From a virus (lineage: Duplodnaviria > Caudoviricetes): a DNA stretch of 64,000 bases. The notes under the pieces are model-generated. The model saw nothing but the letters and a program-made list of their open reading frames with translations, was not told the origin of the DNA and searched no databases. Position numbers and translations under genes: made by a program. This document shows positions 11,593 to 51,407 of this stretch, one piece after another. How positions within the stretch are numbered: position 1 is the stretch's first letter; every line of letters starts with the position of its first letter. The DNA lies in the IMG/VR virus record IMGVR_UViG_3300022723_000184, positions 137,947 to 201,946 of that record; one strand, given 5' to 3'.

Positions 11593-11629
11593 GTCGCCAA
11601 CAGGCTGCTCATCGACAAGAGGATGAGAC
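11593..11629 (+). repeat. Degenerate CRISPR-repeat-like hairpin in the cas12 5' leader
   Basis: CTGCTCATCG-ACAAGAG-GATGAGAC versus array repeat CTGCTCATCG-GTTTAGAA-GATGAGAC; ends 20 nt before ATG 11650. Confidence 0.8.
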
Positions 11630-11649
11630 AAAAAAAAAAGGAATAGCGC

Positions 11650-13419
11650 ATGGGATTCAATAAGGACCCAGAGGCCCGCTGTGTGGTTTACCAGTACGGC
11701 GGCAAACATCCGACGGAAAACGAAGACGAAGCGATCAACCAGCTCGCCAAGGCGAACCGTTTTCGGAACCGGCTCGTTGAGTTGGAGCTACAACGACGTG
11801 AAGAATACCACGCTGCGTTCTCGGGTTACGGAGACCTGGCGGAGCCGTCAAATCAGCTTGAGACGCTCAACGAGCAGCTGACCGCTGCGGTGGCAGAACT
11901 TAAGGCGTGGAGACAATTGAACGGCACTCGAAGTCAACACCCGACGCTAACCCCGCAGATCGTTTCGCTACGGGCTCAGGCTCGCCAGCTACGGACACAG
12001 ATCAAGTCGATCAAGGAAGCGGCCAAAGGCGATCCTACGGTGCAGGCGGCAATCGAAAAAGCAAACCAGCAGCACCGAGATCAGACCAAAGCTGCGTACG
12101 GCGCTGTAAGAGAATCGAACCCGGAGGCCGAGGACGCCAGAGACCGGCATGGGTTGTTCTGGGGAACGGCCCTCCTAGTTCAAAGGGCAGCGACACAGTT
12201 CCAGAAGGGCCCTCCCCCGAGGTACAAACGTTTCGACGGGACGGGAACTATCGGCGTGCAGCTGCAGAACGGGATGTCTGTGGAGGATCTGTTCACTCCG
12301 GGCGGCAGCGTCTGGATTGACCCCGTTCCTCCGGAGGCCTGGGACCCGCAGACGCCGAGAGGTCAAAGGCGAAAACTCGCAAGAACGATGCTACACATGC
12401 GGATCGGCGGGAAGCCGCAGGCCTGGGTGATTCTAAAGCTACCTGTCACCGTGCACAGACCGCTGCCTGCAGGAAAACTTATCAAGTGGGTCACGGTCAC
12501 TCGGCGTAAGTACGGTTCACAGGCGCGGTGGTATGTAAACGTCACGACGGATATCAGGTCTGGTGGCACGCTTCACGATGATGTTGCGGCTGCCGGATTT
12601 GTGGGTGTCGACCTGGGTTTCAGGTTGTTCAAGCCCGCAGAAAGCAGCTCAGGCAAGCGATCGCTCCGAGTGGCTGTATGGGCCGGAGATGACGGGGAGA
12701 CAGGCGAACTTCGCCTCGACGCGAGGTTTATGTCCTACATCTCAAAGGCCGACGGTTTGAGGTCGATCCGGGACAAGCGGCTTGATCAGATCAGAGCGGC
12801 GCTGCTTCCGTTGTGTGACGAGGCGGGTACGCCGGAGTGGTGGAAAGACGACACTCAACACATGGCCAAATGGAGGTCTCCTCGAAAGCTGTATCACTTG
12901 CTCCACAAGTGGAAAGACAACAGGTGGGATGGCGACAAAACGCTGTTCGATCTGTTGGTTAAGTGGGTAGTTCAGGACCGTCACCTCCACGTGTGGGAAG
13001 CCAACAATCGCCGAAAAGTAGCGGCTCGTCGCCTGGACATGTACCGGAACCTGGCGGCCTCTTTGAGGCGCAAGTACGCGGTTATCGGGATCGAAGACAT
13101 CGATTGGCGGATCTGGAGCAAGTTGGCCCTGCCCGAAGAAGAGGAGACCAAGTCAAAGAAGTTCCGTGTTCAAAAGAAACATGCGGCGGTCGGTCTGCTT
13201 GCAGAGACGCTGTCGAATTGCGGGGCACAGGTTGTACGTTTGGATCCCGCTTACACGACGAAGCGGTGCAACGCCTGCGGCAAGATCACCGAATTTGACG
13301 CTGACCGGCACCTGCGACATACGTGCGAACATTGCCATGCGGAGTGGGACCAAGACTACAATGCGGCAAAGAACCTGCAAGACATGGCGAGCGGCAACGC
13401 CGTAACGCAAACCGCGTAG
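11650..13419 (+). CDS. cas12m: Compact type V CRISPR effector, Cas12m (V-M / V-U1)-like, 589 aa
   Basis: RuvC-I VGVD321LG, RuvC-II IGIE482D, RuvC-III DQD569YNAA; zinc finger C540/C543/C559/C562; blocks RFDGTGTIGVQLQ, LPVTVHRPLP, WRSPRKL recalled as Cas12m-like; adjacent CRISPR array. The subtype needs alignment to confirm. Confidence 0.8.
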   Translation: MGFNKDPEARCVVYQYGGKHPTENEDEAINQLAKANRFRNRLVELELQRREEYHAAFSGYGDLAEPSNQLETLNEQLTAAVAELKAWRQLNGTRSQHPTLTPQIVSLRAQARQLRTQIKSIKEAAKGDPTVQAAIEKANQQHRDQTKAAYGAVRESNPEAEDARDRHGLFWGTALLVQRAATQFQKGPPPRYKRFDGTGTIGVQLQNGMSVEDLFTPGGSVWIDPVPPEAWDPQTPRGQRRKLARTMLHMRIGGKPQAWVILKLPVTVHRPLPAGKLIKWVTVTRRKYGSQARWYVNVTTDIRSGGTLHDDVAAAGFVGVDLGFRLFKPAESSSGKRSLRVAVWAGDDGETGELRLDARFMSYISKADGLRSIRDKRLDQIRAALLPLCDEAGTPEWWKDDTQHMAKWRSPRKLYHLLHKWKDNRWDGDKTLFDLLVKWVVQDRHLHVWEANNRRKVAARRLDMYRNLAASLRRKYAVIGIEDIDWRIWSKLALPEEEETKSKKFRVQKKHAAVGLLAETLSNCGAQVVRLDPAYTTKRCNACGKITEFDADRHLRHTCEHCHAEWDQDYNAAKNLQDMASGNAVTQTA

Positions 13420-13543
13420 CCGATCGATCTGTAGTGTGTACAAGTAGTTGTGGCGGCTACGGAGGGCCGCTGCACTTCTGTCAAGGGTGCCGACGATCGA
13501 ACCGCTCGAAAACGGCCTGATAACCATGTACGCACGTGTAGGT

Positions 13544-13549
13544 TATAAT
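13544..13549 (+). promoter_or_regulatory. Sigma70-type -10 box for the CRISPR array
   Basis: TATAAT ending 7 nt before repeat 1; no clear -35. Confidence 0.55.
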
Positions 13550-13556
13550 GCCGCGG

Positions 13557-14301
13557 ATCGTAATACCTGCTCATCGGTTTAGAAGATGAGACGCGGCATT
13601 GATTGCCTTCTTGAGTTGCTGCTCCAACATCGTAATACCTGCTCATCGGTTTAGAAGATGAGACATCGCCGCATCGCTGGAAGCGGGCGTGGCGTCGGCG
13701 GATCGTAATACCTGCTCATCGGTTTAGAAGATGAGACCTTTCTCTGTGTCCGAGATAACGGGGTCACTAATGTCATCGTAATACCTGCTCATCGGTTTGG
13801 AAGATGAGACAAGCATCCGAGCAGCCGCTACAAGGACAAGATCGGCATCGTAATACCTGCTCATCGGTTTAGAAGATGAGACTAGTCGGGCAATTGCTCG
13901 AACGGCACAGAGATATCGTCATCGTAATACCTGCTCATCGGTTTAGAAGATGAGACGCTTACCGGTGGCCGAGGCCAAGGCGCGATGGAGAACATCGTAA
14001 TACCTGCTCATCGGTTTAGAAGATGAGACACGGTGGATCCGGTCGAGCGGCTGATCCTTCACATCATCGTAATACCTGCTCATCGGTTTAGAAGATGAGA
14101 CCCGGTGATCGACGCGGTCCTCGAGAACGCCGAGGACATCGTAATACCTGCTCATCGGTTTAGAAGATGAGACAAGTGGATCAGGTTCTTCTCATCGTAA
14201 TACCTGCTCATTGGTTTAGAAGATGAGACGCGGACTGCCCCGAGATGCGGCGCCGGCTGTGGGTAATCGTAATACCTGCTCATCGGTTTGGAAGATGAGA
14301 C
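13557..14301 (+). CRISPR. CRISPR array, 11 repeats of 36 nt (ATCGTAATACCTGCTCATCGGTTTAGAAGATGAGAC), 10 spacers
   Basis: Repeat starts 13557, 13629, 13702, 13775, 13847, 13921, 13994, 14066, 14138, 14194, 14266; spacers 36, 37, 37, 36, 38, 37, 36, 36, 20, 36 nt; CTCATC/GATGAG stem; 3' GAGAC end. Confidence 0.98.
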
Positions 14302-14356
14302 GAAGATGAAACAGAAGGCGAGACAACGACTTGATCGCTAAGGATGGAGAAAATAG

Positions 14357-14932
14357 ATGACGACAACCAAAAAGACCCCGCGAGACATGTTGCGGGAAAG
14401 TCTGGCCAACCACAGGCTGGTTGAGCTAGTCCGGACGACGGAGGCCGTGGTCTTCTCGCTCCAACGCGAAGGGACCAGAAACATGTCGACGATGATCACG
14501 TTCACCCGCGAGGGGATCGTGCTCCAAGGAGACCTGACGCCTCAGACCTACGGGTCGGTTAGCGCCAAAGGCTACGGCGAGCGGTGGTTCGCTAGCAAGC
14601 TCAGCGTCAGCTATCTCTGCGAGAAGTTCTTGCAGCGGAAGTTCCGCCTGGAGCTGTTCAAGCATGCTCTTGGAGATTCTGGGTGGCGGTGCGCCGCGGG
14701 GATCTCCGAGGAGAACGCCAACCAAATCGCCAGCGAGACCGAGCTGGAATGCGGGTGCGACGCCTACGGGAAGCTAATGGACCTCGGCCTCGACCCTGAT
14801 ACCGTTCCAGGCGTCGGCTACGATCCTCGGGAGGCCGACGTCCTGTGCGAGATACAACGGCGGTTCGCCGAGCTGCACCGAGAGATATACGGAGACCAGG
14901 TGCCCGAGATCCGGGTACCTGAACGATCATGA
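14357..14932 (+). CDS. Hypothetical protein
   Basis: 191-aa ORF, GGAG RBS. Confidence 0.7.
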   Translation: MTTTKKTPRDMLRESLANHRLVELVRTTEAVVFSLQREGTRNMSTMITFTREGIVLQGDLTPQTYGSVSAKGYGERWFASKLSVSYLCEKFLQRKFRLELFKHALGDSGWRCAAGISEENANQIASETELECGCDAYGKLMDLGLDPDTVPGVGYDPREADVLCEIQRRFAELHREIYGDQVPEIRVPERS

Positions 14933-15195
14933 ACCAAGAAAACCTGGCCCCATTCAGGGCCGTTATCGTGGCCGAGATCCGGACCACGCTTTCCGTTAAA
15001 GGTCTGAACGACCCACCAGAGGCCCTCGTCGACGAGCTGTTATCGCTTCCCAGGGTTGTCGAGACCAGTAACTACACGTCGCTCGACGTCGTGTTGAGCT
15101 ATGTGGGAATCGGGGAGCTGGAGCTGCGCCTGACCTCGGACAAGGTCGATATCATGAGGGTGATCCAGAAGCACGAATCTCGGGCCTCATCCTGA
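14929..15195 (+). CDS. Hypothetical protein
   Basis: 88 aa, ATGA overlap. Confidence 0.55.
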   Translation: MNQENLAPFRAVIVAEIRTTLSVKGLNDPPEALVDELLSLPRVVETSNYTSLDVVLSYVGIGELELRLTSDKVDIMRVIQKHESRASS

Positions 15196-15240
15196 CGGGT
15201 GCTCGGGGAGAAGAGATTCCACTACAGGTGCTCGGGGAAC

Positions 15241-15388
15241 ATGAAGGCGGTGTAGCGACGCCAGGGAGTGGTCGCGAAGCGACCACCGGCTTCATGTTTA
15301 TTTAGGACCTTAATACCAGCGCCCTGACGGGCTGGTGTTAGTATACTCTCTATCTAAGATAGAGAGTAGGTTTAATTAAACCTATAGG
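15241..15388. repeat. Cluster of contiguous palindromes in an AT-rich intergenic stretch
   Basis: GTGGTCGC-GAA-GCGACCAC (15268-15286); imperfect hairpin 15311-15340; TACTCTCTATCT-A-AGATAGAGAGTA (15344-15368); TAGGTTTAATTAAACCTA (15367-15384); CCTATAGG (15381-15388). Confidence 0.85.
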
Positions 15389-15394
15389 GAGATC

Positions 15395-16219
15395 ATGGTC
15401 GACACACCTTTCACCTATAAACCTATGCCATACGTCGGTCTGGAGGCTGCCAGGGAGGCGGTTCTCAAGCCGATCTTGAAGGGCATACGCAAGGAGAAGG
15501 CCCTCAAACGCCCGCTCGACGAGCAGCACGCGATGCTTCAAAAGCTGTGGCGCCTTCGGGCCTTGGTCCTTGGAGAACACAACTGGTCCCGGGCCGAGCA
15601 CGGCCGGGGCCTCCAGTACCTCCGCAACTGCCCGCCGTTCGGTGTCCACTACGGCGAGCGGAGCCGTGCCCGGCACTGTGGTGCGGTCAAGGTCTGCCCC
15701 AACTGCTTCGCGAGGCGCAATGTGATGGCCGCCTTCCGGTCAACCGAGTGGTTGTTCTATCTCAAGAACAACAAGCCGGTCATCGCCTACGACCTGGTGT
15801 GCATCCGCCGGACATGGGTTCGGGACGTGGAACTGAGCCAGGCCCTGGAGATGGGTCGGGCCAACCGGAACATGTACCTAGGCAAGTTCACGAAGCCGGC
15901 AGGGGGCATCACACTGACCACGCTGGAGCCGGCCAAGACCGGTTGGCAGCTGGCCCTGGCCACGATCGTCGCGGCCCGCGAAGAGGACCTGCCCGACCTG
16001 GGCCAGGCCGACGTCCAGCGTCTGGGTGTCGATCACATGACCAAACGCCGCATGGCCCGGATGATCGGATGGGCCATGCGCTACCCGCTGGGCATGATGT
16101 ACGGCTCTGAGGGCCGGGCAGCCCAAATGCTGACCGTGGCCGGCGAGGCCCGAACCCGTCAGCTGGTGTCTTCGGGCGCCATGCGGAACGAAGGAGTCCG
16201 GAAGATGTCTTTCCGGTGA
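15395..16219 (+). CDS. Hypothetical protein with a CxxxxxCPxC motif (Rep-like, tentative)
   Basis: RHCGAVKVCPNCFARR; GGAG RBS. Confidence 0.55.
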   Translation: MVDTPFTYKPMPYVGLEAAREAVLKPILKGIRKEKALKRPLDEQHAMLQKLWRLRALVLGEHNWSRAEHGRGLQYLRNCPPFGVHYGERSRARHCGAVKVCPNCFARRNVMAAFRSTEWLFYLKNNKPVIAYDLVCIRRTWVRDVELSQALEMGRANRNMYLGKFTKPAGGITLTTLEPAKTGWQLALATIVAAREEDLPDLGQADVQRLGVDHMTKRRMARMIGWAMRYPLGMMYGSEGRAAQMLTVAGEARTRQLVSSGAMRNEGVRKMSFR

Positions 16220-16223
16220 ATCC

Positions 16224-16237
16224 AAAAAGGACTTTTT
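16224..16237. promoter_or_regulatory. Palindrome variant AAAAAGGACTTTTT (copy 2)
   Basis: Intergenic, upstream of ORF 16271. Confidence 0.5.
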
Positions 16238-16270
16238 AGATGTCGAATCAATACAGTTGCCGGCCCGTCG

Positions 16271-16702
16271 ATGAAAGCGAGGCCCGAGATGGGTAAGCGG
16301 TCAAAATTGAAAAGACGAGTCGACGCTTGTCAAGGTGGCCAGACCTTGTTGATCTGGACCGAATCGTACAACCCGTTCCAGTTGGGTGGCTACGTTCATG
16401 GTCCGGTCGGGATCCATGTCAAGGTCGGCCAGCGACTGCCGTTGGGTAAGGGCTACTACGGTTACCTCGTGGTCAACCCGTTGAACGGTGAGACCCACGT
16501 GGCTGAGGAGCTGACCGGGGCCCTTATAGGTCCTAGCCTGGCGTCGGTCCGTAAAGACGTGGCCGCGGGTGACGGTAGGACCATGAAGAACCAGATCGAT
16601 GCGGCACTAGCTCGCAAGGCGGGGGTAGTAGTGGTCCAGGACGAAGAGGATTTTTGGCAGCGGCTGCAGCCGACTGTCGTCGACGAAAGTGAGGAGGAAT
16701 AG
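16271..16702 (+). CDS. Hypothetical protein
   Basis: 143-aa ORF. Confidence 0.6.
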   Translation: MKARPEMGKRSKLKRRVDACQGGQTLLIWTESYNPFQLGGYVHGPVGIHVKVGQRLPLGKGYYGYLVVNPLNGETHVAEELTGALIGPSLASVRKDVAAGDGRTMKNQIDAALARKAGVVVVQDEEDFWQRLQPTVVDESEEE

Positions 16703-17265
16703 TGGCCAACAACTATTGGGTCTTCAGCACCATGCTCCCGCTCGACAACAACGAGCAGAAGAATTGGTGGTTGGACCAAATGGAAGAAGTGTATTACACC
16801 GAGACCCGGGATGAGCAAGGGAAGCTCACGGAACTCGAACTGGTGGAGTGCGAGCAAGACGAGGTGCCTGAGCACGATACTGAGGTGCCCCGGATCGTTG
16901 GTGAAAGCGCACAGCGCGTTTTGACCGGCAACGGCGACGTCCACGACATCGACCTGATGGAGGCCCTGGAGTTCGGCCTCGACTTTCAGTGGAAAATGGA
17001 ACAGGACGGCGACAAGCCGGCGGTCTGGATCTATTCGGACGACGGTGGTAATGCCTACCACGCGGCCCTGGTGGTCCGTAAGATGTTCCAGCACTTTGAG
17101 CTGCCCCGCAGTTGGTGGATGACCTGGGCCACGTACTGCTCTAAGCCCCGTGTGGACGAGCAGAGCGGTGGCGCCGTCGTCGTGACCCGCGAGGGTATCC
17201 ATTGCATGGACGCCCAGACCTGGGCCAGGAACAAGGTCAAGGCCAGAGGAGAGTTCGATGGGTAG
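16702..17265 (+). CDS. Hypothetical protein
   Basis: 187 aa, GAGGAGG RBS, GTG overlapping the previous stop. Confidence 0.65.
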   Translation: MANNYWVFSTMLPLDNNEQKNWWLDQMEEVYYTETRDEQGKLTELELVECEQDEVPEHDTEVPRIVGESAQRVLTGNGDVHDIDLMEALEFGLDFQWKMEQDGDKPAVWIYSDDGGNAYHAALVVRKMFQHFELPRSWWMTWATYCSKPRVDEQSGGAVVVTREGIHCMDAQTWARNKVKARGEFDG

Positions 17266-17548
17266 ACTCAAGCCCCGTGGCCTCCCGCCGGAACCGGACG
17301 ACGACTGGAATGAGCCGGAGCTGAGCTGGGAGGACGCCGCCGAACAGTGCCAAACGATCTATGACAAGATCGAGGATGCCAGCCCAGGTCTGTGGGACCG
17401 GGCCTACGACTTTTTCGAGAGCATCCAGGAGAAGGTCAAGGACATGAAGGAGTCGATCGAAAGCCGGCGACGCGCTACGCCCAAGCAGAAGGCTGCGTTG
17501 GACAAGATGGAGGCGGGCGTCGATCGGTGGTTGGAAAACGATGAGTGA
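17258..17548 (+). CDS. Hypothetical protein
   Basis: 96 aa, overlapping operon arrangement. Confidence 0.6.
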   Translation: MGRLKPRGLPPEPDDDWNEPELSWEDAAEQCQTIYDKIEDASPGLWDRAYDFFESIQEKVKDMKESIESRRRATPKQKAALDKMEAGVDRWLENDE

Positions 17549-28055: not shown

Positions 28056-28058
28056 GGC

Positions 28059-29690
28059 ATGGCGAAGAAGAACAAGGAAGTGGCTAGGCGGGCAGCCGCA
28101 GACCCCGCCAAGAAAGAACGCATGATGGCGATCCTCATCCAGAACGATGAGGTGTACAACGCCGTGGCCGAGGCCCTCAAGCCGGAGCTGTTCCCGTCGC
28201 ACGACATGATGTATTCCGTGCTCTGGGGCGTGGTGAAGAAGTTCAAGGAGGAGCACGAGGATTTCCCCGACTACCAGCTGTTGCAGGCTGAGGTCTCGGA
28301 CGTGCTCGGCGACGACCCCGACCTGTTGAACGACACGGAGATCGACGAGCTGAACCAGTTCATCGACTTCGCGTTCGACAAGGACTCGTTTGACGACAAC
28401 CCGGCGACGTCCTCGAAGTACGCCAGGTGGGCCATCAAGCAATTTCGGGCCTTCCTGGAAGAGCGAATCGCTCACGAGGCGAGGGATCAGATCTACAAGG
28501 ACAACTCGGTGCCGGTGAACCTGCCCGACCTGCTGGACGACCTGCAGAACCGGGTCGAGCAGGTGCGGGCCGTGGCCGACGGTACTGTCAAGCCAGCGTT
28601 CCCCGAGGACTGGGACAAGAAGACGGCGCTGCAACTGTTCAGCACCGGAATCTCGTTCCTCGACCGGTTCCTGGGCGGCGGCCACGCCAACGGCGAACTG
28701 TACGGGATCCTCGGGCCGTACGGCAGCTGCAAGACCACGCTGGCCATCATGATCCTGGTCAACGCGGCCAAGGCCTTCCTCGCTCAGTCCAAGACCGGGG
28801 ATAACCCCAAGAAGAAGATCGCCTTCATGGTCAGCTACGAGGCCCGCCTGCCTGAGATGCGGGCTCGTTCCCTGGGCTACGCCGCGAAGGTCCAGCGGAG
28901 CACGATGGAGAGCATGACGTCGAAGGACGACCTGTCGACGTCCGGTAACCTCCGCCCCTACGAGAAGCGGCTGTTCAAGAAGAAGATCGCCCAGGGCAAG
29001 AAGGTCAAGGGCGAGCGGGAGCGGATCGACGCTGCGACCGGGTGGATGAACGAGCACATCTCGTTCATCGACATGACCGGGTACGACGACGATCACCGCA
29101 AGGCCGGTGGCGGCGGCATCAAGGAAATCGCCCGCCGCATAAACCAGGTGCTGCGGGCCAACCCTGGCACCGAGTGCGGCCTCGTGGTCATCGACTACGT
29201 GGGCGCCATGGTCAAGCGACAGATGGCTGCCGAGGACCTGGACGACGCCGCTCGCCGGCATCTGATCTCCGACACGCCCCTCCTCACCAAGGCACAGATC
29301 GCGGACCAGTTTGACTGCCCCATCTGGTTCATGCACCAGATGTCGGGTGAGGCCAACGCCCGCGGTGAAGGCGCGAAGATGCACCACACGGACTCGGCGG
29401 AGGCCAAGAACTTCGCCGAGAACCTGGACTTCGCTTTTGTGTTGGGTAACACCAACTCGGACAACCTGGCGACGCTGGCCTGCACCAAACGCAGACGCCA
29501 GCCGCCTAAGGACTCAACGATCATCAAGATCGATGGCGGCATGAACCGGGTGCTGGACATGGAGGACAGGTTCGTCCTCGACACCAGGACCAAGAAGATC
29601 ATGTCGCACGATGAGCAGCATAAGCTGCCGCACGCTCCGGGCGAGCAGGCCGCGGCCTCAGCCCCGAGCCCCGTAATGCTGGATGAGTGA
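28059..29690 (+). CDS. Replicative DNA helicase (DnaB-like)
   Basis: GELYGILGPYGSCKTT, LVVIDYVG, WFMHQ; directly upstream of the primase. Confidence 0.82.
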   Translation: MAKKNKEVARRAAADPAKKERMMAILIQNDEVYNAVAEALKPELFPSHDMMYSVLWGVVKKFKEEHEDFPDYQLLQAEVSDVLGDDPDLLNDTEIDELNQFIDFAFDKDSFDDNPATSSKYARWAIKQFRAFLEERIAHEARDQIYKDNSVPVNLPDLLDDLQNRVEQVRAVADGTVKPAFPEDWDKKTALQLFSTGISFLDRFLGGGHANGELYGILGPYGSCKTTLAIMILVNAAKAFLAQSKTGDNPKKKIAFMVSYEARLPEMRARSLGYAAKVQRSTMESMTSKDDLSTSGNLRPYEKRLFKKKIAQGKKVKGERERIDAATGWMNEHISFIDMTGYDDDHRKAGGGGIKEIARRINQVLRANPGTECGLVVIDYVGAMVKRQMAAEDLDDAARRHLISDTPLLTKAQIADQFDCPIWFMHQMSGEANARGEGAKMHHTDSAEAKNFAENLDFAFVLGNTNSDNLATLACTKRRRQPPKDSTIIKIDGGMNRVLDMEDRFVLDTRTKKIMSHDEQHKLPHAPGEQAAASAPSPVMLDE

Positions 29691-30760
29691 TGGCTGAGTA
29701 TTTGAATCCAAGTTTGCACCGCCGGCTCGTGCGGGACTTCGGGCACGTCAAGGTCTCCAACGAAGGGGAGAAGATGCTCGCTAAGTACAAGCGGGACTTC
29801 TTCTCAGGGGAAGACAAGCTCGACGTGATGTACCCGGGCGAGTACTACCAGGTGAACTGTCCCAAGTGCAGCGACACCCGGCACCGGCTTTACATCAACC
29901 ACATGTGGGGCGTCCGCGACGAGCGAGGCCGCCGGAACCTGTGGCTGATGGTCTGCTACAACGAGGGGTGCTTCTCCTCGTACCGCGACCGGGAGGACCT
30001 GTTCGACCGGCTGGAAGAGCGCGCTGGCGTCCTGGGCAAGGCCAGGATCCACGAGGGCAAAGAAGTCGACCTGGACTCGATCGAGATCGAGCCGCCGGGC
30101 CCGATTACGCGGCTGGACAAACTGCCGCCTGAGCACCCGGCCAACCGATACTTGGTCAGCAGGTTTTACGATCCGGAGCGGCTGGGGAGGTGCTACGGAG
30201 TCGGTTACTGCCAAGAGAGCCTGTATTACCTGGCTCGAAACCGCGTGTACGCACCGTTGTATTTCGGCGGAAAGCTGCGCGGTTGGCAGTGCCGGTACGT
30301 GGGCGAGATCGACAAGCGGAACGAAAACCCTCCGCCGAAGTGGTGGAGTTGTCCCAACATGAAGAAGTCCCACGTCATCTACAACTACGACCAGATGAAG
30401 AAGTGGCAGACCGGGGTGATCGTGGAGGGCCCCGGCGACGTCTGGGGCTTTGGTCCGATGGCCGGCGCTACGCTCGGCGCCACCATGTCTCCCCAGCAGC
30501 AGCGGCTGTTCACGGCCGCGTTCCGGAAGCAGGGCGGCGTGCTCCTCTACGACCCCGAGGCCATGGTGGCCAAGGACAAACACGGCAAGCTCAAGATGGA
30601 GCGGCTGGCTGAAAAGCTGTCGTCCGGCACCAAGCTGGGCGTGGCTCCGGTCACCCTTCCGTACGGAGATCCCGGAAGCCTGGACCGACGGTTCATGCGA
30701 GAGTTCGTGACAAAGGAGGCCGCGTCGATGGGCGTGAAGGTCTCCTGGAAGAAGCGGTGA
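29690..30760 (+). CDS. DNA primase (zinc ribbon + TOPRIM)
   Basis: CPKCSD...C zinc ribbon, GWQCRY, VIVEGPGDVW, YDPE, DPGSL. Confidence 0.85.
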   Translation: MAEYLNPSLHRRLVRDFGHVKVSNEGEKMLAKYKRDFFSGEDKLDVMYPGEYYQVNCPKCSDTRHRLYINHMWGVRDERGRRNLWLMVCYNEGCFSSYRDREDLFDRLEERAGVLGKARIHEGKEVDLDSIEIEPPGPITRLDKLPPEHPANRYLVSRFYDPERLGRCYGVGYCQESLYYLARNRVYAPLYFGGKLRGWQCRYVGEIDKRNENPPPKWWSCPNMKKSHVIYNYDQMKKWQTGVIVEGPGDVWGFGPMAGATLGATMSPQQQRLFTAAFRKQGGVLLYDPEAMVAKDKHGKLKMERLAEKLSSGTKLGVAPVTLPYGDPGSLDRRFMREFVTKEAASMGVKVSWKKR

Positions 30761-33700
30761 CGATGGCCAAGCAGAAACGACGCAAGGTGATCAAGGACCT
30801 GGATCGTCACCGCAGCCGCGGTAAGGCGAAGGAGGTCCAGGACGAGCTGGACGGGATCGGGATGTACCCGCTGGACGCTCCGGGTATGCCCATGCCGGGC
30901 CCGGATTTCCTGGAGAACGCTCGGAGGCTCGGGGACAAGAACAAGGAGCGGACCGACAAGGTCACGCTGCCCGATGGTCGGCGGAAGACCGTTAAGTCGA
31001 TCGAGCCCGGCGAGTGGCTGGAGGTGTTGCACGCTCGGGCCCTGCGGGATCCTAACTTCAACATGTCGATCCAGGTGAAGGCGGGCCTACGCAAGCAGGT
31101 CAATTTCGTGCCCGGTCACATCTGGGGCCAGCACCAGAAGGAGTACGCCCAGGGCATCGACCTGCCGGTGGACGGGCCGAGGCCGGCCGACATCATGGTC
31201 ATTGGCAAGATGCCGGGCCAGACCGAGGTCCAGGAGAAACGCAACTTCGTGGGCGAGTCCGGGGCCCTGCTCCTGGAGGTGCTCCGGGATCTCAAGATCA
31301 AGGGCATGGGCAAGTGGTACATCACGAACCTGTGCAAGTTCCACCCGCCTGACGGGCAGTCGACGCTCAAATCGGGCTGGATCAAAGACTGCATGCCGTT
31401 GCTCCACCAAGAGCTGCGGATCGTCAGGCCCAAGTACATCTTGTGCCTGGGTGCCGATGCCTCGAAGGAGCTGTTGGGCAAGAAGAACAACGTCCACTAC
31501 ATGGACGGCCGGGTCGTGGAGCTGGAGTACCCGATCAACGTGGATGGTGAGGAGGTGCTGCACAAGTCGCACGTGATGACCGTGGTCCATCCGGCCGCGG
31601 TAGCCCGGGCGCCGGAGCAGCGACGCATGTTGGAGCGAGGACTTTCCCGCTTCGACATGCTCACCAAGGGCATCCGCTGGGACCTGGAAGAGAAGGACAT
31701 CGACCACCGGGCCATCCGTACGCTGGAAGAACTCAAGTCGCTTCTCTGGGAGATCGAGAATGACCCAACCAAGAAAGACAGGGTCATCGCCGTCGACGCC
31801 GAGTGGCACGGCGAACACCCCGTCAATAAAGGAAGCTATGTACGAACGGTTCAATTTGCGTGGCAAGAGAAGAGAGCTTGTGCGGTCGTACTTCGAGGTC
31901 CTGGCGGAAAGGTTACGTTCGTCGACGAGGACGGAAAGCCCGCCATCAAGCGAGGACTCAGGCTCCTAAGCAAGTTCTTCAAAAACAAGCGGGTGGTCGG
32001 CCACTTCTTTGTGGCTGACCTTGAGTGGTTGGTCGACATCGGCCTGGATCTTGTCCCGAGCTACCGCGTGCCCCTCCGGGACAAGCGGGTGGACCAGTTC
32101 AGCGGCCGACTCAAGCGGCGGTACGAGAAGCTGGGCTTCAGCGACCGCGACTACGTTCCCGCTTGGCTCCGCACCAAGTACGAGGGCGGCGCCGACACCG
32201 GCCTCATGGCACACGCTATCGAGGAGACCGCCATGCTGGGCTTGGAAGGCCTGGCCATGCGGTACACGACCGTGCCCCGGTACGACATCCCGCTGCACGA
32301 GTGGCGGGAGCAGTTTTGCAAGGACCGCGGTCTCAAGTCGAAGGACTTGGAGGGGTACGGCGAGTGCCCCGACGAGATCCTGATCCCGTACGGCATCTAC
32401 GACGCCGACGCTACCCTGCGGCTCTTCTACGCGCTGAACAAGTTGCTCGACTACGACTACGAGGGCAACTGCTGCCGCGAGCCGTTCTGGGAGGCGATGA
32501 TCGCGTGCCCCGCGATCTTGGAGATGCACCAGACCGGCATCCCCGTCCACAAGCCACGCATCGACTACCTCACCGAGGTGTTCATGGAGGCCCGGACGGA
32601 GATGGAGGCCAAGATCCGCACCTGGGCCAAGTGGTCGGAGTTCAACGTTCGGTCGGTCCAGCAGGTGCGGGAGTTCCTGTTCGGCGAGCAGCTGAATGGG
32701 AAGGTGACCAAGGACGGCGGGACCGTGAGGATCCGCCCCAAGGGCGCCAAGAGCCTGTACGTTGAGCCCCTGCTAGACACGGGCAAGCCTCCCACCCAGT
32801 GGTGGCAGGTCAAAGAGAAGGGCCTGGAGGGCGAACGCAGCCCGTCCACCAACAAGGCGGTGCTCGCCATCTTGGCCCAGGAAAACGAGGAGGCATCGGA
32901 CCAGATCAACTGGCTCCGGGACTATCGCTTCCTCGACCAGGTGCTCAAGAGCCTTCTGAGACCGCCGGTCACCGATGACGACGGCAACTGGCTGATGGAG
33001 TCGGACGGCGATGGGCTGGGCGGCCTGCTGTTCGACGCCGGCCTGGCCAGCGTGGTCTGCAACGACGGTCGGGTCCGCACCCACCTCTATCCCACGACTG
33101 AAACGGGGCGGTGGCGTTCGGCTCGACCCAACCTGCAGAACATCAGCAAGCAGAGAGATGCCGACTACGTCCGGATGCTTGGCGAGAAGTACAAGCACAA
33201 GCTCCGCTCGATTCTCAAGGCCCCTCCCGGGTACCTGCTGATCGAGGCCGACTACATCGGGGCCGAGCTGTACGGCATGGCCACGATGTCCGGCGACGAG
33301 GTGATGATCGACCACTGTCAGCGAAACCAGCTGCCGGAGGACGACCCCAACTTCTATGACATCCACTCGAACGTGGCGGTGTTCGCGTTCAAGCTGGACT
33401 GTCCGCCCACGAAGGCGGGGCTCAAGGCGATCAACAAGGCCCACCTGCGGATCGTGGCCAAGAGCGTGATCTTCGGCATCGCGTACGGACGTGGTGCCAA
33501 GGCCATTGCGCTGGCGGCCAAGGAGCAGGGCGTGGAGATCACGGCCGACGAGGCCCAGCAGGTGATCGACACGATCTTCGACATGTACCCTGGCCTCCGT
33601 CCGTTTTTCGAGGAGTGCAAGAGCCGGGCTATCAACGACGGCTGGCTTTGCCACTGCTTCGGCCGGTTCCGCCGGTTCCCGCGGACGGACGACTACAAGC

Positions 33701-34098
33701 TCCAGGGCGAGTTCGAGCGGCAGGCGACCAACTTCCCGATCCAGGGGATGATCGCCAGCGCCGTGGACCGGGCGGTCGCCGAGATCTACGAGTACCGGCA
33801 CGAGGTCGGGGTGCCCGACATGTACAAGATGGTCCTGCAGATCCACGACGCCGTGGTCCTGCTGGTCCCGTACGAGCACGCCGAGCGGGTGGTGGACGAG
33901 GTGCTGCCTGTTTGCATGCAGCAGCGGGTCCCCATCTACCCGACCAACCTGGCTGGCGTCCCCACCGGAAAGGGCCCCTATACCCTTGGCATCGACACCG
34001 AGGTCATGGTCCACTGGGGCGAACACGTCACTAAGGAACAGGCCGCCAAGTGGGGCGTGCCTAGCGTCACCGCGGGCGGCACGAAGCTGGTCGCTTGA
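30757..34098 (+). CDS. polA: Family A DNA polymerase with an N-terminal uracil-DNA-glycosylase-like domain
   Basis: UDG family-4-like GKMPG/FVGESG/TNLCKFHPP/HPAA; exonuclease VDAEW; TETGRWRSARPNLQNI, ADYIGAEL, KSVIFGIAYG, NFPIQG, QIHD. Confidence 0.92.
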   Translation: MTMAKQKRRKVIKDLDRHRSRGKAKEVQDELDGIGMYPLDAPGMPMPGPDFLENARRLGDKNKERTDKVTLPDGRRKTVKSIEPGEWLEVLHARALRDPNFNMSIQVKAGLRKQVNFVPGHIWGQHQKEYAQGIDLPVDGPRPADIMVIGKMPGQTEVQEKRNFVGESGALLLEVLRDLKIKGMGKWYITNLCKFHPPDGQSTLKSGWIKDCMPLLHQELRIVRPKYILCLGADASKELLGKKNNVHYMDGRVVELEYPINVDGEEVLHKSHVMTVVHPAAVARAPEQRRMLERGLSRFDMLTKGIRWDLEEKDIDHRAIRTLEELKSLLWEIENDPTKKDRVIAVDAEWHGEHPVNKGSYVRTVQFAWQEKRACAVVLRGPGGKVTFVDEDGKPAIKRGLRLLSKFFKNKRVVGHFFVADLEWLVDIGLDLVPSYRVPLRDKRVDQFSGRLKRRYEKLGFSDRDYVPAWLRTKYEGGADTGLMAHAIEETAMLGLEGLAMRYTTVPRYDIPLHEWREQFCKDRGLKSKDLEGYGECPDEILIPYGIYDADATLRLFYALNKLLDYDYEGNCCREPFWEAMIACPAILEMHQTGIPVHKPRIDYLTEVFMEARTEMEAKIRTWAKWSEFNVRSVQQVREFLFGEQLNGKVTKDGGTVRIRPKGAKSLYVEPLLDTGKPPTQWWQVKEKGLEGERSPSTNKAVLAILAQENEEASDQINWLRDYRFLDQVLKSLLRPPVTDDDGNWLMESDGDGLGGLLFDAGLASVVCNDGRVRTHLYPTTETGRWRSARPNLQNISKQRDADYVRMLGEKYKHKLRSILKAPPGYLLIEADYIGAELYGMATMSGDEVMIDHCQRNQLPEDDPNFYDIHSNVAVFAFKLDCPPTKAGLKAINKAHLRIVAKSVIFGIAYGRGAKAIALAAKEQGVEITADEAQQVIDTIFDMYPGLRPFFEECKSRAINDGWLCHCFGRFRRFPRTDDYKLQGEFERQATNFPIQGMIASAVDRAVAEIYEYRHEVGVPDMYKMVLQIHDAVVLLVPYEHAERVVDEVLPVCMQQRVPIYPTNLAGVPTGKGPYTLGIDTEVMVHWGEHVTKEQAAKWGVPSVTAGGTKLVA

Positions 34099-34100
34099 CG

Positions 34101-34130
34101 TTGCAGAGAGGTAGGCCGCCGTGGTAAAAT
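34101..34130 (+). promoter_or_regulatory. Sigma70-like promoter with extended -10
   Basis: TTGCAG-18 nt-TAAAAT with a TG dinucleotide upstream of the -10. Confidence 0.45.
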
Positions 34131-34294
34131 CAGGACCGCCGAAAGGCACCGCAACCACCGTTGAACCGCACCCGAAGGCCGAGGATCTGATACCGCTCGC
34201 AAAGAAGGCAAGGTAGGCGTGCTCCGCATACCTGGCCGACTGCGAAGAGAAGTATCAGCGGCGAAGAAAATGGAGGAAAAGGAACAGGATCCCT

Positions 34295-34771
34295 GTGCTC
34301 GCACTCTGCGGGTACGGCCGAGCCGGCAAGGACTACTCAGCAAAATACCTGTGTTCCCTGACCGCGATGCAGTACGGAGGCAGCACGTCTTCCGTCGTAG
34401 CGCCGTTGATCGCCAACGCTCTGAACCAGCCGGTTGATCAGACGTTCGCCGAGCGGCACGACAACCGGATGTTTTGGTTCGAGTTCTGCAACGCACTCCG
34501 CCTCCACGACCCGTCGATGTTGGCCCGTATGAACCTGGGCAGTGGCGACATGGTGGTCGGGATCAGGAGTGAGGTCGAGCTTCACGCGTGTGTTTCGCAA
34601 GGCGTGGTCGACTACACGGTCTGGGTCGATAACCCAAGGGCAGAGTTGGATCCGACGGTTGAGTATGGCCAAGAAGACTGCCACCTCACCGTGAGTAACT
34701 GTGGGTCAAGGCTTCAGCTTTTCGAGAAGCTCGACAAGCTGTTGGACCTGATGAGCAAAACGTACTTTTGA
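34295..34771 (+). CDS. Deoxynucleoside monophosphate kinase-like P-loop protein (start uncertain)
   Basis: LALCGYGRAGKD P-loop; GIRSEVE. Confidence 0.7.
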   Translation: MLALCGYGRAGKDYSAKYLCSLTAMQYGGSTSSVVAPLIANALNQPVDQTFAERHDNRMFWFEFCNALRLHDPSMLARMNLGSGDMVVGIRSEVELHACVSQGVVDYTVWVDNPRAELDPTVEYGQEDCHLTVSNCGSRLQLFEKLDKLLDLMSKTYF

Positions 34772-34787
34772 CAGGAAGGAAGCCATC

Positions 34788-36575
34788 ATGGCAAAACAAC
34801 GAAAAGGAAGTCGGCTGAAGCCTCGCGGCGCCGGCCAGTACAGCAACAAGACACACGCCAAGGGCGACAGCTCGATGCCGCCCGACGACAGGTCGCTCAA
34901 GACCAACCTGGCCCGCGTCACCCTGGTCCGGCCCAAGTTCACCGGCGGCCCCCTGTGGTTCCGCCCGTGGCCGTGCCCGGACTTCGCCGATCCGGAGAAG
35001 CTGGTCCCCGGCCGCGAGTCCACCGAGGCCCGTGGCCAGAGCCAATGGATCGTCCGGGCCGAGATGGCCCCATACATCGGCCTCAACGATCCGGCCTGCG
35101 AGAAGGTGAGCTTCATCACCCGCTACCCGTGGGACCGTGAGGCCAAGCGGAACAACCCGTACCGCGTCCTCTACTTCGCGGCCAAGGACGCTCACGAGGC
35201 CGGCTCCTTCGGGCCCGGCCGCAAGTGGGACTCCTACTGGAACAAGATCCTCAGCGGCAAGAAGGGGCGTGGCGCCGAGCTGGGCTCCCCCTCGCCAAAG
35301 TGGTTCGTTCAGGGCGTGGTGTACGCTAACGGCGAGAAGGACTACACGGCCGATCGCGACCTGCCGCTGGGCATGGACCCGGCGGACGACCTGGTCGTCA
35401 TCCAGATGTCGTCGAGCGCCGGCGGCAAGCTCCTGGACCTCCTTGACATCCCGAAGAAGAACTTCGACGGGGATCCCGAGGAGACCCCTTGGGCGGCGTA
35501 CAAGTACGGCGACTCTTGCGGCATCGTGAACCCGAAGACCGGGGGCATCGATGGCGGCCTGATCATGGGCCTGTTCAACCCGGAGAAGACCAAGGACATC
35601 GTGAAGAACACGTCCTGGGATCCGGACGAGAAGGACCGTGACATCAAGGGCTACGAGGCGGCCATCAGGGCCAGCTTTAAGGGCGCGGACGGCGACGTCT
35701 ACAAGCCCTCGCTCGACGCCGCCCAGGTGCAGCACATCGGCGAGAAGATACAGTTCTGGTGGGACGACGTCGACGAGGCCGGCAACATCCAGTCTCCCGG
35801 CCTCCTGTGGGTCCCGTCGATCGAGGAGCAGTGCGTCCTGATCGCCAAGGCCTTCCGCACCGTCCCGCGGCTCCTGCAATACGCCTGGGCCGACTTCGAG
35901 GACGAGTTCCTCACCGACGACGTGCGTGGTGTGCTCAACGCCCGCAAGTCGGCGGTCATGCCGGGCACGGACGGCGACGAGGACGACGATGATGACGACG
36001 GCTTCGAGGATAAGAAGCCGCCGAAGCGTGGGGGCGCCAAGCAGGATCCCACACAGGCCTCGCAGGACGACGACGATGACGACGAGTTCGAGGACGAGGG
36101 TGAAGAGGAGTCCGAAGCCGAAGCCGAAGGCGACGAAGGCGAAGAGGAGGGTGACGACGATGGCGACGACACCTTCCCCGACGACACGGTCGACGACGGC
36201 GAGGGCGAGGAAGAGCCCGAGTCCGAGGACGGCGACGACGAGGGCCTCGAAGACGATGACGACGAGGACTTCGGCGAAGACGACGAAGACTTCGGCGAGG
36301 ACGCTGGCGAGGAGGAAGGGGAGGAAGAGCCCGAGGGCGACGACTCCGACGACTCTGAGGACGAGGACGGCGAAGAGGAGGAAGACTCTGAGAAGGCCAT
36401 GAGGGCCTCGCTCGACGCCGCCAAGGCCCGCCAGGCCAAGCGTGCCACGAAGGCCGCCCCGGCCAAGAAGTCGACGTCGAAGAAGACGACCGCCAAGAAG
36501 ACGGGCTCCAAGAAGGCCACGTCGAAGAAGACGACGAAGAAGACCTCGGCCAAGAAGACCAAGGCCAAGGGCTGA
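34788..36575 (+). CDS. Possible ssDNA-binding protein with a long acidic tract and a Lys-rich tail
   Basis: 595 aa between polA and the recA-like gene; about 140-aa D/E tract, then KKTTAKKT-type tail; function inferred from position and composition only. Confidence 0.45.
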   Translation: MAKQRKGSRLKPRGAGQYSNKTHAKGDSSMPPDDRSLKTNLARVTLVRPKFTGGPLWFRPWPCPDFADPEKLVPGRESTEARGQSQWIVRAEMAPYIGLNDPACEKVSFITRYPWDREAKRNNPYRVLYFAAKDAHEAGSFGPGRKWDSYWNKILSGKKGRGAELGSPSPKWFVQGVVYANGEKDYTADRDLPLGMDPADDLVVIQMSSSAGGKLLDLLDIPKKNFDGDPEETPWAAYKYGDSCGIVNPKTGGIDGGLIMGLFNPEKTKDIVKNTSWDPDEKDRDIKGYEAAIRASFKGADGDVYKPSLDAAQVQHIGEKIQFWWDDVDEAGNIQSPGLLWVPSIEEQCVLIAKAFRTVPRLLQYAWADFEDEFLTDDVRGVLNARKSAVMPGTDGDEDDDDDDGFEDKKPPKRGGAKQDPTQASQDDDDDDEFEDEGEEESEAEAEGDEGEEEGDDDGDDTFPDDTVDDGEGEEEPESEDGDDEGLEDDDDEDFGEDDEDFGEDAGEEEGEEEPEGDDSDDSEDEDGEEEEDSEKAMRASLDAAKARQAKRATKAAPAKKSTSKKTTAKKTGSKKATSKKTTKKTSAKKTKAKG

Positions 36576-36588
36576 TCGCAGTCGGTGG

Positions 36589-36623
36589 GGGGAGGGCCGA
36601 ACAACCGGCCCTCCCCTATTTTT
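36589..36623 (+). terminator. Rho-independent terminator
   Basis: GGGGAGGGCCG-AACAAC-CGGCCCTCCCC-TATTTTT. Confidence 0.8.
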
Positions 36624-36635
36624 GACCGCTGGGGA

Positions 36636-36671
36636 GTCGTAATGTCCGCTCACCGGCTTGGAAGATGAGAC
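36636..36671 (+). repeat. Solitary CRISPR repeat copy
   Basis: GTCGTAATGTCCGCTCACCGGCTTGGAAGATGAGAC, 30/36 ungapped identity to the R4/R11 repeat variant; ends 11 nt before ATG 36683. Confidence 0.9.
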
Positions 36672-36682
36672 GAAGGAACCCG

Positions 36683-38212
36683 ATGGCTAAAAGAAAACCC
36701 CGTAAGCCGACACCGAAGCCGGACGTTGAGGGCGACGACTTCGACGAGTTCCCGGACGAGGTTCGGGAGCAGTCGGAGCCCAGGGCGTCCAAGAAGGCGG
36801 CCGAGAAGAAGTCCGCCAAGAAGGCGGCGAGCAAGAAGCGGGTGGCCCGAAAGGATCCCCGCGATCAAGAGCAGAAGGGCGAGCAGCGTGGCGAGGTCTC
36901 CGACAAACGTGCGCCCAGACCCGCAAGACCCACGGTGAACCTCGACAAACGCAAGCTGACCAAGAAGCAGAAGGGGCAGCTCGAAGAGTGGCGGGGCAAC
37001 ACGAAGGGCAAGAAGCTCGACAGCTATTTCGCTGGCCAGGTGGAGCAGGCCCGCAAACAGTTCGGTCACCGAGCGGTCATGGCCGCGACCGAGGCCGCCA
37101 ACCTGGTCATCGTGATCCCGTGCCCGAGCCTTGCGTTCGAGTACCTGATCGCCCAGGACGGTTTCCCGCTTGGACTGGTGCTGCACCTGGCGGGTCCTCC
37201 TGGCTCGCTCAAGTCGTCGCTGCTCTTGGAGTTCATCCGCTGGTTCCGCATGGCGGGCGGCGGTGGCATCCTGATGGAGAACGAGACCAAGTACAGCCCG
37301 GACCTGCCCAAGTCGATCCTCGGCTACGAGGACGCCGAGGTGGGTTTGATCCTCAACCGGTGCGTTTCGGTCGAAGACTGGCAGGACAAGCTGACCTACT
37401 GGATCGACACCCAGAAGAAGGGCCTCATCGGCACGAAGGAAGAGCCCGGCCCCGGTCGCACGGTTCCGATTCTGTTCGGCGTCGACTCGATCATGGGCAA
37501 GGCCAGCTACGAGACCCAGGAGAAGGTGGCCAAGGAAGGTCACGCCGAGCGCAGCTTCCCCGTGGAAGCAATGAAGATGACCACCTACATGAAGTCGGTC
37601 CCGCAGTGGATCGACGAGTGGCCCTTTGCCCTCGTCCTCAACAACCATCTCAAGATCGGCAAGGATGACACCGGCCGCGAGGTGAAGAGGACGGCTGGCG
37701 GCGTGGGCGTCAACTTCCAGGAGTCCTGGGAGCTGGAGCCCAGCGTGGTCAAGAGCAAGATCGGCTCAGCGGACTGGGACGGCGTGCAGATCCGCATCCG
37801 TTGCCGCAAGAACTCCATGGGCCCCACGCACCGGCAGATCGAGACCCGGATGCTCTGGTGGGAAGAGGAGAACAAGGAAACGGGCGAGTGGGAGCAGATC
37901 ACCGTCTGGGACTGGGACTGGGCGACGATCAAGATGCTCAGCACCCTCAAGAGCCGCCCAGCGGCCCGGCTCAAGGACGCGGGCTTTCACCTGCAGACGC
38001 CCAAGGTCAGCGACGTGGAAAACACGGCCTGGTCCTCGAACCTCGGCATGAAGGCGAAAGACGCCAAGCCGTGGCAGGAGGTCGGCCGCATGATCCGTGA
38101 GGACGATCAGCTGATGGAGACGCTCCGCACGTGCCTGTCGATCAAGCGGCGGCCGTTGCTGGATGGCGATTACCTGGATCAACTTGAGAGCTTGAGGAAG
38201 GACTTGCCGTGA
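36683..38212 (+). CDS. RecA/UvsX-like recombinase
   Basis: GPPGSLKSS Walker A, MENE, FGVDSI Walker B, LNNHLK, basic N-terminal extension. Confidence 0.82.
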   Translation: MAKRKPRKPTPKPDVEGDDFDEFPDEVREQSEPRASKKAAEKKSAKKAASKKRVARKDPRDQEQKGEQRGEVSDKRAPRPARPTVNLDKRKLTKKQKGQLEEWRGNTKGKKLDSYFAGQVEQARKQFGHRAVMAATEAANLVIVIPCPSLAFEYLIAQDGFPLGLVLHLAGPPGSLKSSLLLEFIRWFRMAGGGGILMENETKYSPDLPKSILGYEDAEVGLILNRCVSVEDWQDKLTYWIDTQKKGLIGTKEEPGPGRTVPILFGVDSIMGKASYETQEKVAKEGHAERSFPVEAMKMTTYMKSVPQWIDEWPFALVLNNHLKIGKDDTGREVKRTAGGVGVNFQESWELEPSVVKSKIGSADWDGVQIRIRCRKNSMGPTHRQIETRMLWWEEENKETGEWEQITVWDWDWATIKMLSTLKSRPAARLKDAGFHLQTPKVSDVENTAWSSNLGMKAKDAKPWQEVGRMIREDDQLMETLRTCLSIKRRPLLDGDYLDQLESLRKDLP

Positions 38213-51167: not shown

Positions 51168-51407
51168 CGGCTCAAAACGCGTCAAAATACATGCAGGCAA
51201 CTTAGCCTGCTCAATCAGGACCCCGGAAGGCTCCGTCGGGCATTTCTGCTCGGCGGGGTCTTTTTCTTTTCACATCCATGGAACAGACCCAGTACCAGAT
51301 GAGCCGACCTTCGGGTCACCTGAGACGGGACCGGTCTGTTCCCTGGATCTGAACCACGTGGCGGCCGGAGCCGCCGAAACAAGACACCTCTCAAGTAGGA
51401 GAACGTC

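Follow-up and report, generated by a model that had tools for sequence, protein, structure and literature searches.

Repeats of clustered regularly interspaced short palindromic repeat (CRISPR) type that lie singly in phage genomes are a known class of element, and we describe here a family of them in a phage that also encodes the cognate effector, Cas12m, and an array. The DNA analysed (hereafter the window) is a 64-kb stretch forming the last part (genome 137,947–201,946, + strand) of the 201,946-bp virus record IMGVR_UViG_3300022723_000184. The best-described members of the class, the viral solitary repeat units (SRUs; Faure 2019) or Racr elements, are single repeat mimics that act as dose-dependent CRISPR inhibitors (Camara-Wilpert 2023, PMC10651486). 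Like the units reported here, they are single intergenic repeat mimics in phages, with the structure kept and with type V examples; many of them lie just 3′ of a promoter, as part of the present units may do. They are not cas-associated, whereas this phage encodes both effector and array; it has about 18 units per genome instead of one or a few, falling into several stem subfamilies, and seven of them, located in mRNA leaders, have no separate promoter, with the guide side (the sequence that follows the repeat) abutting gene boundaries. Since such units are a described phage class, the initial annotation, which found this configuration unfamiliar among characterised type V systems, was only partly right: what is unusual here is the phage's own effector and the copy number.

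The crlRNA/CreR elements (10.1101/2023.03.03.530964, 10.1101/2023.03.10.532045) offer a second comparison, as they place a degenerate repeat beside a cas gene, which may also be the case here, and have been proposed to mediate Cas feedback, with a type V-A example. Their guide, however, is directed to a partly matching target in the cas promoter that is flanked by a protospacer-adjacent motif (PAM), whereas here the guide is contiguous and the repeat itself stands at the PAM position. In the phage genome, the guide of the copy in the cas12m leader (sol1, see below) matched its own repeat-flanked locus and no second site. With no trans target and the repeat at the PAM position, any feedback would therefore act on the RNA level.

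Type V-M loci (PMC11013384, PMC10442227) and the Cas12m of myxophage MV-1 (10.64898/2026.09.14.751636) likewise combine a compact Cas12m with an array of 36-nt repeats, and the accessible parts of these reports make no mention of dispersed solitary units. Type V-M shares with this phage the lack of a trans-activating CRISPR RNA (tracrRNA) and of adaptation genes, and the pseudoknot scaffold in the repeat. In published work, Cas12m processes its own precursor CRISPR RNA (pre-crRNA) upstream of the scaffold without tracrRNA, a crRNA of 50–60 nt being kept, and binds DNA in a PAM-dependent manner through a 17-bp heteroduplex (PMC11013384, PMC10442227); the characterised PAMs given there are T/C-rich (PMC11013384). 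We searched the phage genome for Cas1 and found it absent.

In TnpB and IscB systems, of which Cas12m is a near TnpB descendant, the guide of the ω-RNA is the DNA flanking the element and the target is the empty site. As an analogy of mechanism only, the units resemble these systems in that a scaffold is followed by flanking DNA and the element would separate the target-adjacent motif from the target and so protect self; they differ in that we identified neither a transposase nor element ends nor a target-adjacent motif.

The phage record, a single virus of ∼202 kb with a CheckV completeness of 90%, is one of many phages of ∼200 kb that form a large group with the common gene order DNA polymerase A, acidic protein, RecA-like. 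We scanned the whole genome by Hamming distance, by nhmmer and with three covariance models (R1, R2 and R3), and observed about 18 repeat units outside the array, on both strands. They are given below by genome position, strand and tier of evidence (E, expectation value).

Tier 1, at most 7 mismatches in 36 (eight units): 5222 (−), 7620 (−), 46773 (−), 53583 (−), 72751 (+), 124139 (−), 136027 (−) and 174582 (+, the recA-like copy)
Tier 2, E ≤ 2.4e-4 with a model built from the array and tier 1 only (three units): 105824 (−), 125944 (+) and 136827 (+)
Tier 3, found with iterated models or marginal: 100873 (+), 149539 (+, the cas12m copy), 163592 (−, window 25646–25681), 124039 (−), 67845 (+), 101886 (+) and 129550 (−)

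When the same model was run as a control on five relatives lacking cas12m (1.07 Mb), it returned one hit, at E=0.067, compared with 18 hits outside the array in the 0.2 Mb of this phage, and therefore at most about one marginal unit is expected to be false. The unit family is specific to this cas12m-bearing phage. Two units are identical to the phage's own array repeat at 35 of 36 positions, and those at 5222 and 7620 share identical 57-nt cassettes, which suggests recent spread or conversion. The units are solitary by the SRU definition, under which the next repeat is more than ∼100 bp away, the sole close pair being 124139 and 124039, 64 nt apart.

The initial annotation had been built on the 8-mer GATGAGAC, and we therefore give its distribution in the window. 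It occurs 13 times, always on the + strand: eleven copies (13585–14301) are the 3′ ends of the 11 array repeats, and two lie outside the array, at 11622–11629 and 36664–36671. Both are on the sense strand and next to AAGGA; the first reads GATGAGAC-A10-GGAATAGCGC-ATG, with the cas12m start (11650) 20 nt away, and the second GATGAGAC-GAAGGAACCCG-ATG, with the recA-like start (36683) 11 nt away, all as had been described. Shuffled sequence is expected to contain 3.1 copies per window, so that two non-array copies are at about chance level, and three more, unrelated, 8-mers occur elsewhere in the genome. Therefore, the 8-mer count is no evidence by itself and the signal is in the extended match. 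The solitary copies do descend from the Cas12m repeat and are not 8-mers met by chance. The statement that the repeat lies outside the array only twice is correct for the 8-mer in the window; a third unit, on the minus strand and with another stem, sits inside the very interval considered, and with about 15 more units 5′ of the window, the idea of just two solitary copies had to be abandoned. The units of the window and their surroundings are as follows.

11593–11629, plus strand: sol1, a partial solitary repeat in the cas12m leader, of which only 11605–11629 (CTGCTCATC-GACAAGAG-GATGAGAC) fits the model
11630–11649, plus strand: A10 tract and GGAA Shine-Dalgarno, the 20 nt from sol1 to the cas12m ATG, the would-be crRNA guide position as read from the sequence
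25646–25681, minus strand: intergenic solitary repeat with the stem CTCGCC/GGCGAG (R1 30.4 bits, E=2.5e-5, outside the R1 training set)
36588–36625, plus strand: intrinsic terminator 3′ of the gene for an acidic/basic protein of 595 aa, conserved in position in relatives
36636–36671, plus strand: sol2, a full-length solitary repeat between this terminator and the recA-like Shine-Dalgarno, 29 of 36 positions identical, ungapped
36672–38212, plus strand: GAAGGAACCCG leader and recA-like gene, ATG at 36683, 509 aa (P0002), with a weak Pfam RecA match

The recA-like copy, sol2, scored 48–55 bits with the covariance models (E about 1e-9 to 1e-11, and 6.8e-12 with R3). In sol1 it is the 3′ 25 nt that are retained, namely the stem CTCATC/GATGAG, the preceding CTG, the flanking G..A and the AC tail, while the loop and the 5′ part diverge from the repeat; its hairpin appears in both the predicted minimum free energy and centroid folds. 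The unit at 25646 has no GATGAGAC since its stem differs, and it is followed by about 24 nt (25645–25622) and then by a hairpin with a T-run that looks terminator-like by eye. The 509-aa reading frame next to sol2 matches RecA weakly (Pfam, 2.2e-6) and has many phage homologues of about 500 aa.

The effector and the array stand next to each other on the same strand.

11650–13419, plus strand: cas12m, 589 aa (P0001), assigned from PDB and Pfam matches and the RuvC alignment
13544–13549, plus strand: TATAAT box of the array leader, ending 7 nt 5′ of the first repeat
13557–14301, plus strand: CRISPR array of 11 repeats of 36 nt (ATCGTAATACCTGCTCATCGGTTTAGAAGATGAGAC), with spacers of 36–38 nt except one of 20 nt

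A phmmer search against PDB identified the 589-aa protein as Cas12m over its full length (23vw_A, 'Cas12m', 5.9e-67, residues 14–578), followed by Cas12m2 (1.5e-26), and Pfam reported the TNB domain Cas12f1-like_TNB. Its RuvC positions align as D321/E482/D569, the canonical Asp-Glu-Asp (DED) triad, whereas Cas12m2 has His-Asp-Asp. With this triad the phage protein may be able to cleave DNA; the published DED-type Cas12m proteins, for their part, bound DNA without cutting it (PMC11013384). The array begins 137 nt 3′ of cas12m. Its spacers had no trans targets in the phage's own genome, and nothing exceeding chance was found for them in the INPHARED phage collection and five relatives; therefore, no PAM could be derived. 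Two irregularities of the array were also seen. Spacer 9 (window 14174–14193) has only 20 nt, and the last repeat is followed, at window 14302–14324, by GAAGATGAAAC-AGAAGGCGAGAC, a copy of the repeat 3′ tail. An extra AAGGCGAGAC is also carried by the units 100873 (genome 100908–100917) and 129550 (genome 129550–129594), and this duplication of the repeat 3′ tail at the repeat/guide junction looks like the product of slippage or duplication.

We then compared the units with one another for the features expected of a Cas12m handle. Their scaffold has a pseudoknot stem of 6 bp flanked by G..A; to this come a second helix, of 3 bp, and the tail GAC. Within the phage copies, 97.8% of the cells of the 6-bp stem pair, and four of the six pairs show compensatory changes (for example CATATC/GATATG, CGCACC/GGTGCG and CTCGCC/GGCGAG); none of 500 shuffles attained as much. 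When orthologous arrays, taken from further viral contigs, were included, pairing was 97.5% in both helices. Covariation (A-U to G-C, C-G to U-A) is seen in the second helix too, in which 5′ ACC/GCC pairs with the first bases of the loop, and as this helix is outside the search model it provides an independent check. The G before and the A after the stem are invariant, as are A7, C11, G13, G20, A35 and C36 in the copies, with T8, G21, A27 and A28 conserved at 90% or more, and several non-stem bases are fixed even where the stems of the units have changed. The units comprise several repeat subfamilies with distinct stems, as is the case between orthologous arrays. In the published Cas12m2 crRNA, a G·A pair caps a 6-bp pseudoknot stem, and this layout matches that of the phage repeat and units (PMC10442227). 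From the kept helices, the flanking G..A and the fixed non-stem bases, we concluded that the units retain all the known needs of a Cas12m handle.

The placement of the units divides them into two architectures. The + strand holds 179 of the 187 called genes, and 82% of the genome is coding (genes outside the window were called by a simple codon-usage caller of our own), and each of the 18 units is either intergenic or reaches no more than 22 nt into the end of a gene. Seven are co-directional leader units that end 11–24 nt 5′ of a start codon (67845, 72751, 100873, 101886, 125944 and the cas12m and recA-like copies), and in these sense copies a guide position of 17 nt covers the Shine-Dalgarno sequence and the start codon. 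The recA-like copy and 67845 lie directly 3′ of terminators. The majority, 11 units, are antisense or convergent, with the guide side pressed against the upstream gene: the upstream stop codon lies inside the repeat at three units and is abutted by the repeat at one, and among minus-strand units four have a gap of 0 or −22 nt, and two a gap of 8–35 nt, between unit and upstream gene (Fisher estimate from the upstream gaps, computed by hand, about 2e-4). A TATAAT-like hexamer with at most one mismatch ends 5–7 nt 5′ of the repeat in five of the ten minus-strand units and in none of the eight plus-strand ones, against a background of 0.43% (p about 4e-10), which is the same spacing as in the array leader; looser versions are present in other minus-strand units, and no leader unit (0 of 7) has a −10 box at this distance. 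Predicted promoters thus occur where no transcription can come from read-through on the + strand, a pattern that points to selection for making repeat-sense RNA. The shared cassette has its right boundary exactly at the repeat/guide junction, its left part being array-leader-like. The flanking genes encode a baseplate J-like protein, Cas12m, the RecA-like protein and small unknowns, and no functional theme was found among the genes 3′ of the units. A proposed coupling of CRISPR activity to recombination through the recA-like copy hence lost its basis.

An AT-rich palindromic motif, AAAAAGTACTTTTT(G/A), was also noticed. It is present in about 14 copies, mostly intergenic, in this genome of 60% GC, reads alike on both strands and is often 5–15 nt 5′ of a start codon (window 6156, 38777, 47383 and, within a gene, 20553; genome 661, 10522, 46827, 103645, 125936 and others). 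It abuts three solitary units (46773−, 53583− and 125944+) and may be a phage promoter or operator.

One of the units can be compared with the corresponding site in related phages. Four relatives with the same gene order, whose RecA-like proteins are 59–71% identical, have terminator, Shine-Dalgarno and ATG in succession at this site and no repeat; therefore sol2 is a lineage-specific insertion. In the relatives, a T/C-rich terminator tail stands directly before the ribosome-binding site (RBS), at the point where sol2 is inserted. The gene preceding this terminator (window 34788–36575) encodes the 595-aa protein, which has a long Asp/Glu-rich run and then a Lys-rich tail, with low-complexity repeats at 35976–36560, and has a positional counterpart in the relatives between DNA polymerase A and the RecA-like gene.

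From these results, we tentatively propose that the units are Cas12m-bound RNA modules combining repression in cis with titration of the effector, an explanation that we consider quite possible though somewhat short of probable. With intact handles, binding of the unit transcripts by the phage Cas12m is the simplest expectation. All units are placed so that they could be transcribed in the repeat-sense direction; Cas12m would bind their RNAs like pre-crRNA, cut them upstream of the scaffold and hold the next ∼17 nt as a 'guide', which is here the adjoining phage sequence. As the repeat occupies the PAM position at the home locus, the phage's own DNA should stay unbound. In the seven leader copies, the held segment would include the Shine-Dalgarno and the start codon, bound Cas12m would be expected to keep ribosomes out and translation would be lowered, so that repression would follow nearly from geometry. 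For the cas12m leader copy this would amount to negative feedback, eased as the protein is taken up by crRNAs or by promoter-driven units. From the other eleven units, antisense or convergent, crRNA-like RNAs with a single repeat would be made as separate molecules, and these would load Cas12m or titrate it.

Several observations weigh against this proposal. Control of translation by the effector through repeats, as first put forward, fits the seven leader copies and fails for the 11 antisense or convergent units, several of which have their own −10 box; on this majority a translation model says nothing. Even for the sense copies, Shine-Dalgarno adjacency departs only weakly from what uniform insertion would give (Fisher p=0.066), and it would be seen with any insertion tolerated between terminator and ribosome-binding site. 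The copy most important for feedback, sol1, is the weakest member of the family (outside the training set, E=0.61 with R2 and 0.083 with R3, genome-wide), and no handle-like element was found 5′ of cas12m in four other phage V-M loci. The pseudoknot stem of sol2 has one uncompensated C·A mismatch and its hairpin is not in the predicted minimum-energy fold; the unit at window 25646 has a broken 3-bp helix, as a decayed copy, and was not significant by the stricter R3 (E=1.9), and a decayed 5′ half repeat is present at genome 125150 (+). The stem covariation could also reflect different source arrays and not selection within the phage.

The geometry of the guide side on both strands is best explained by another possibility, which we nevertheless hold to be doubtful: that the units are one-repeat crRNA genes whose hard-wired guides, taken from the flanking phage sequence, are directed against kin phages. 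The repeat would replace the PAM at home and so give self-immunity, while a co-infecting relative free of the insert would keep PAM and target, and Cas12m would bind the RBS or gene end of this relative, leading to silencing or stalled replication. This would account for units on both strands, for a guide side pressed to or into a gene with the other side intergenic, and for three upstream genes that obtain their stop codon from the repeat, as also happens at an SNF2 gene of an unrelated element (below). The encoded cognate effector and the lack of trans targets in the own genome agree with it; the T/C-rich tail of the relatives at the sol2 site can be set beside the T/C-rich PAMs of characterised Cas12m proteins (PMC11013384); and all arrays found for this repeat family lie on contigs of viral or metagenomic origin, which fits use by phage against phage. 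On the other hand, the nearest homologues in the collections searched are just 71% (RecA-like) and 46% (Cas12m) identical, too distant to show an empty site or a PAM; the array spacers had no match in relatives or in known phages; with sense copies the phage would put a load on translation of its own genes; and the sole paralogous 'empty-like' site is flanked by GAG and is not T-rich. To our knowledge, self-identical guides are without precedent among CRISPR systems, which also counts against them. A stronger form, in which the units are a self-immunising weapon set, each insertion removing the home PAM and at once making a guide against the uninserted allele, is in our view rather unlikely; if true, it would be a CRISPR-based, drive-like exclusion between viruses following the empty-site logic of the TnpB ω-RNA.

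The paralogous site came from the search of the unit guides for trans targets in the phage genome, which yielded none except for the guide of 124139 against window 51174–51209 (2 mismatches in 24). We rejected this pair as targeting, since it belongs to a promoter-like paralogous stretch of about 55 nt with a GAG flank and is better read as a duplication. The stretch, GGCTAA-TTGCCTGCATGTATTTTGACGC...TTATTTAGGT, is found at window 51150–51209 (−) and genome 124075–124138 (−) and resembles a minus-strand TTGACG-N17-TAGGTA promoter; the genome copy is flanked by the units 124139 and 124039, the window copy by neither.

The only role of such units that has been established experimentally is that of a decoy, solitary repeats just 3′ of a promoter acting as dose-dependent inhibitors, including of type V-A (PMC10651486). 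Accordingly, promoter-driven repeat mimics of Racr type could occupy Cas12m proteins encoded by the host, by prophages or by rival phages, and the stem variants would widen the range of orthologs covered; we judge this to be fairly unlikely. Many units do have a leader-type −10 box, their several stem subfamilies are like those between orthologous arrays, and an unrelated element (G009, below) has five units and no cas12m in its 22-kb fragment. Such decoys, however, would blunt the phage's own cas12m and array, two of them being nearly identical to its own repeat; they have no need for placement in leaders or at gene boundaries, one unit only has a terminator-like hairpin soon 3′ of the repeat, and a search of 185,579 species genomes turned up no bacterial array of the repeat family.

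That the units are mostly neutral remnants, either scars of recombination with CRISPR arrays at spacer/protospacer matches by which the PAM was lost and escape gained, or a leader-repeat cassette carried along for its promoter, and serve no function today, is quite improbable: decayed or partial copies (sol1; genome 125150 and 129550; window 25646), the boundary of the cassette at the repeat/guide junction with an array-leader-like left part, covariation from different source arrays and the absence of units from the relatives examined would suit it, but the presence of promoters tracks the strand that needs one, non-stem positions are conserved where stems changed, 18 independent illegitimate events would be required, and the identical cassettes at 5222 and 7620 suggest recent spread or conversion.

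We also looked for comparable units in other Cas12m elements, and other phage V-M loci mostly have no dispersed ones. The 87-kb contig with the closest Cas12m (46%) had no solitary units within the 21.7 kb inspected, a scan of the whole genome of Rctr197k (KX853510.1), which has cas12m, found no such dispersed units, and the complete 192-kb phage G007, also with cas12m, gave one weak hit only; two fragments (L001 and G008) are counted among these loci. Rctr197k, G007, L001 and G008 are the four loci with no handle-like element 5′ of cas12m. Absence from relatives that keep cas12, which the initial annotation had taken to speak against its proposal, is thus seen in Rctr197k and G007, yet their Cas12m is 33% identical to that of this phage and they are not true relatives. 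Rctr197k also has a second small array with a different repeat (19281–19535) beside a second 'transposase-like' gene (19773–21176).

Units were found in G009 (IMGVR_UViG_3300037440_000881), an unrelated, integrase-bearing fragment of 22 kb, which has five on both strands and no cas12m within its 22 kb; one unit lies just 5′ of an SNF2 gene and another overlaps the stop codon of the same gene. Two V-M-type units 16 nt apart (17511–17598) are in frame inside its open reading frame for a DNA polymerase A of 1035 aa, and the same stretch of that frame also matches a 2,302-aa protein of the present phage. Two contigs of one metagenome combine a Cas12m-like gene and an irregular array with separate units. 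On contig Ga0180732_1000630, some repeats of the Cas12m-like locus (L109 7259–8443) are 36–57 nt apart, leaving spacers of 0–21 nt, and elsewhere (L154 783–900) a repeat faces a partial reverse-complement copy of itself across 42 nt. A strict repeat pattern had zero hits in IMG/VR and metagenomes, and a relaxed one had 33 single hits in the 185,579 species genomes, where a rough chance estimate is ∼35. With the Cas12m or the RecA-like protein as single query, nothing was found in IMG/VR, and homologues were retrieved there with an alignment as query in place of a single protein.

Phage solitary repeats have hitherto been understood as decoys of elements without Cas proteins. If Cas12m binds the units described here, transcripts of the phage itself would be acted on by a CRISPR effector, either by translational feedback together with titration or through a panel of fixed guides against rival kin, and either would be new for type V. 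As Cas12m is a compact binder in use for gene control, switches with a handle in the leader, or guide units in which the repeat replaces the PAM, may serve as design templates.

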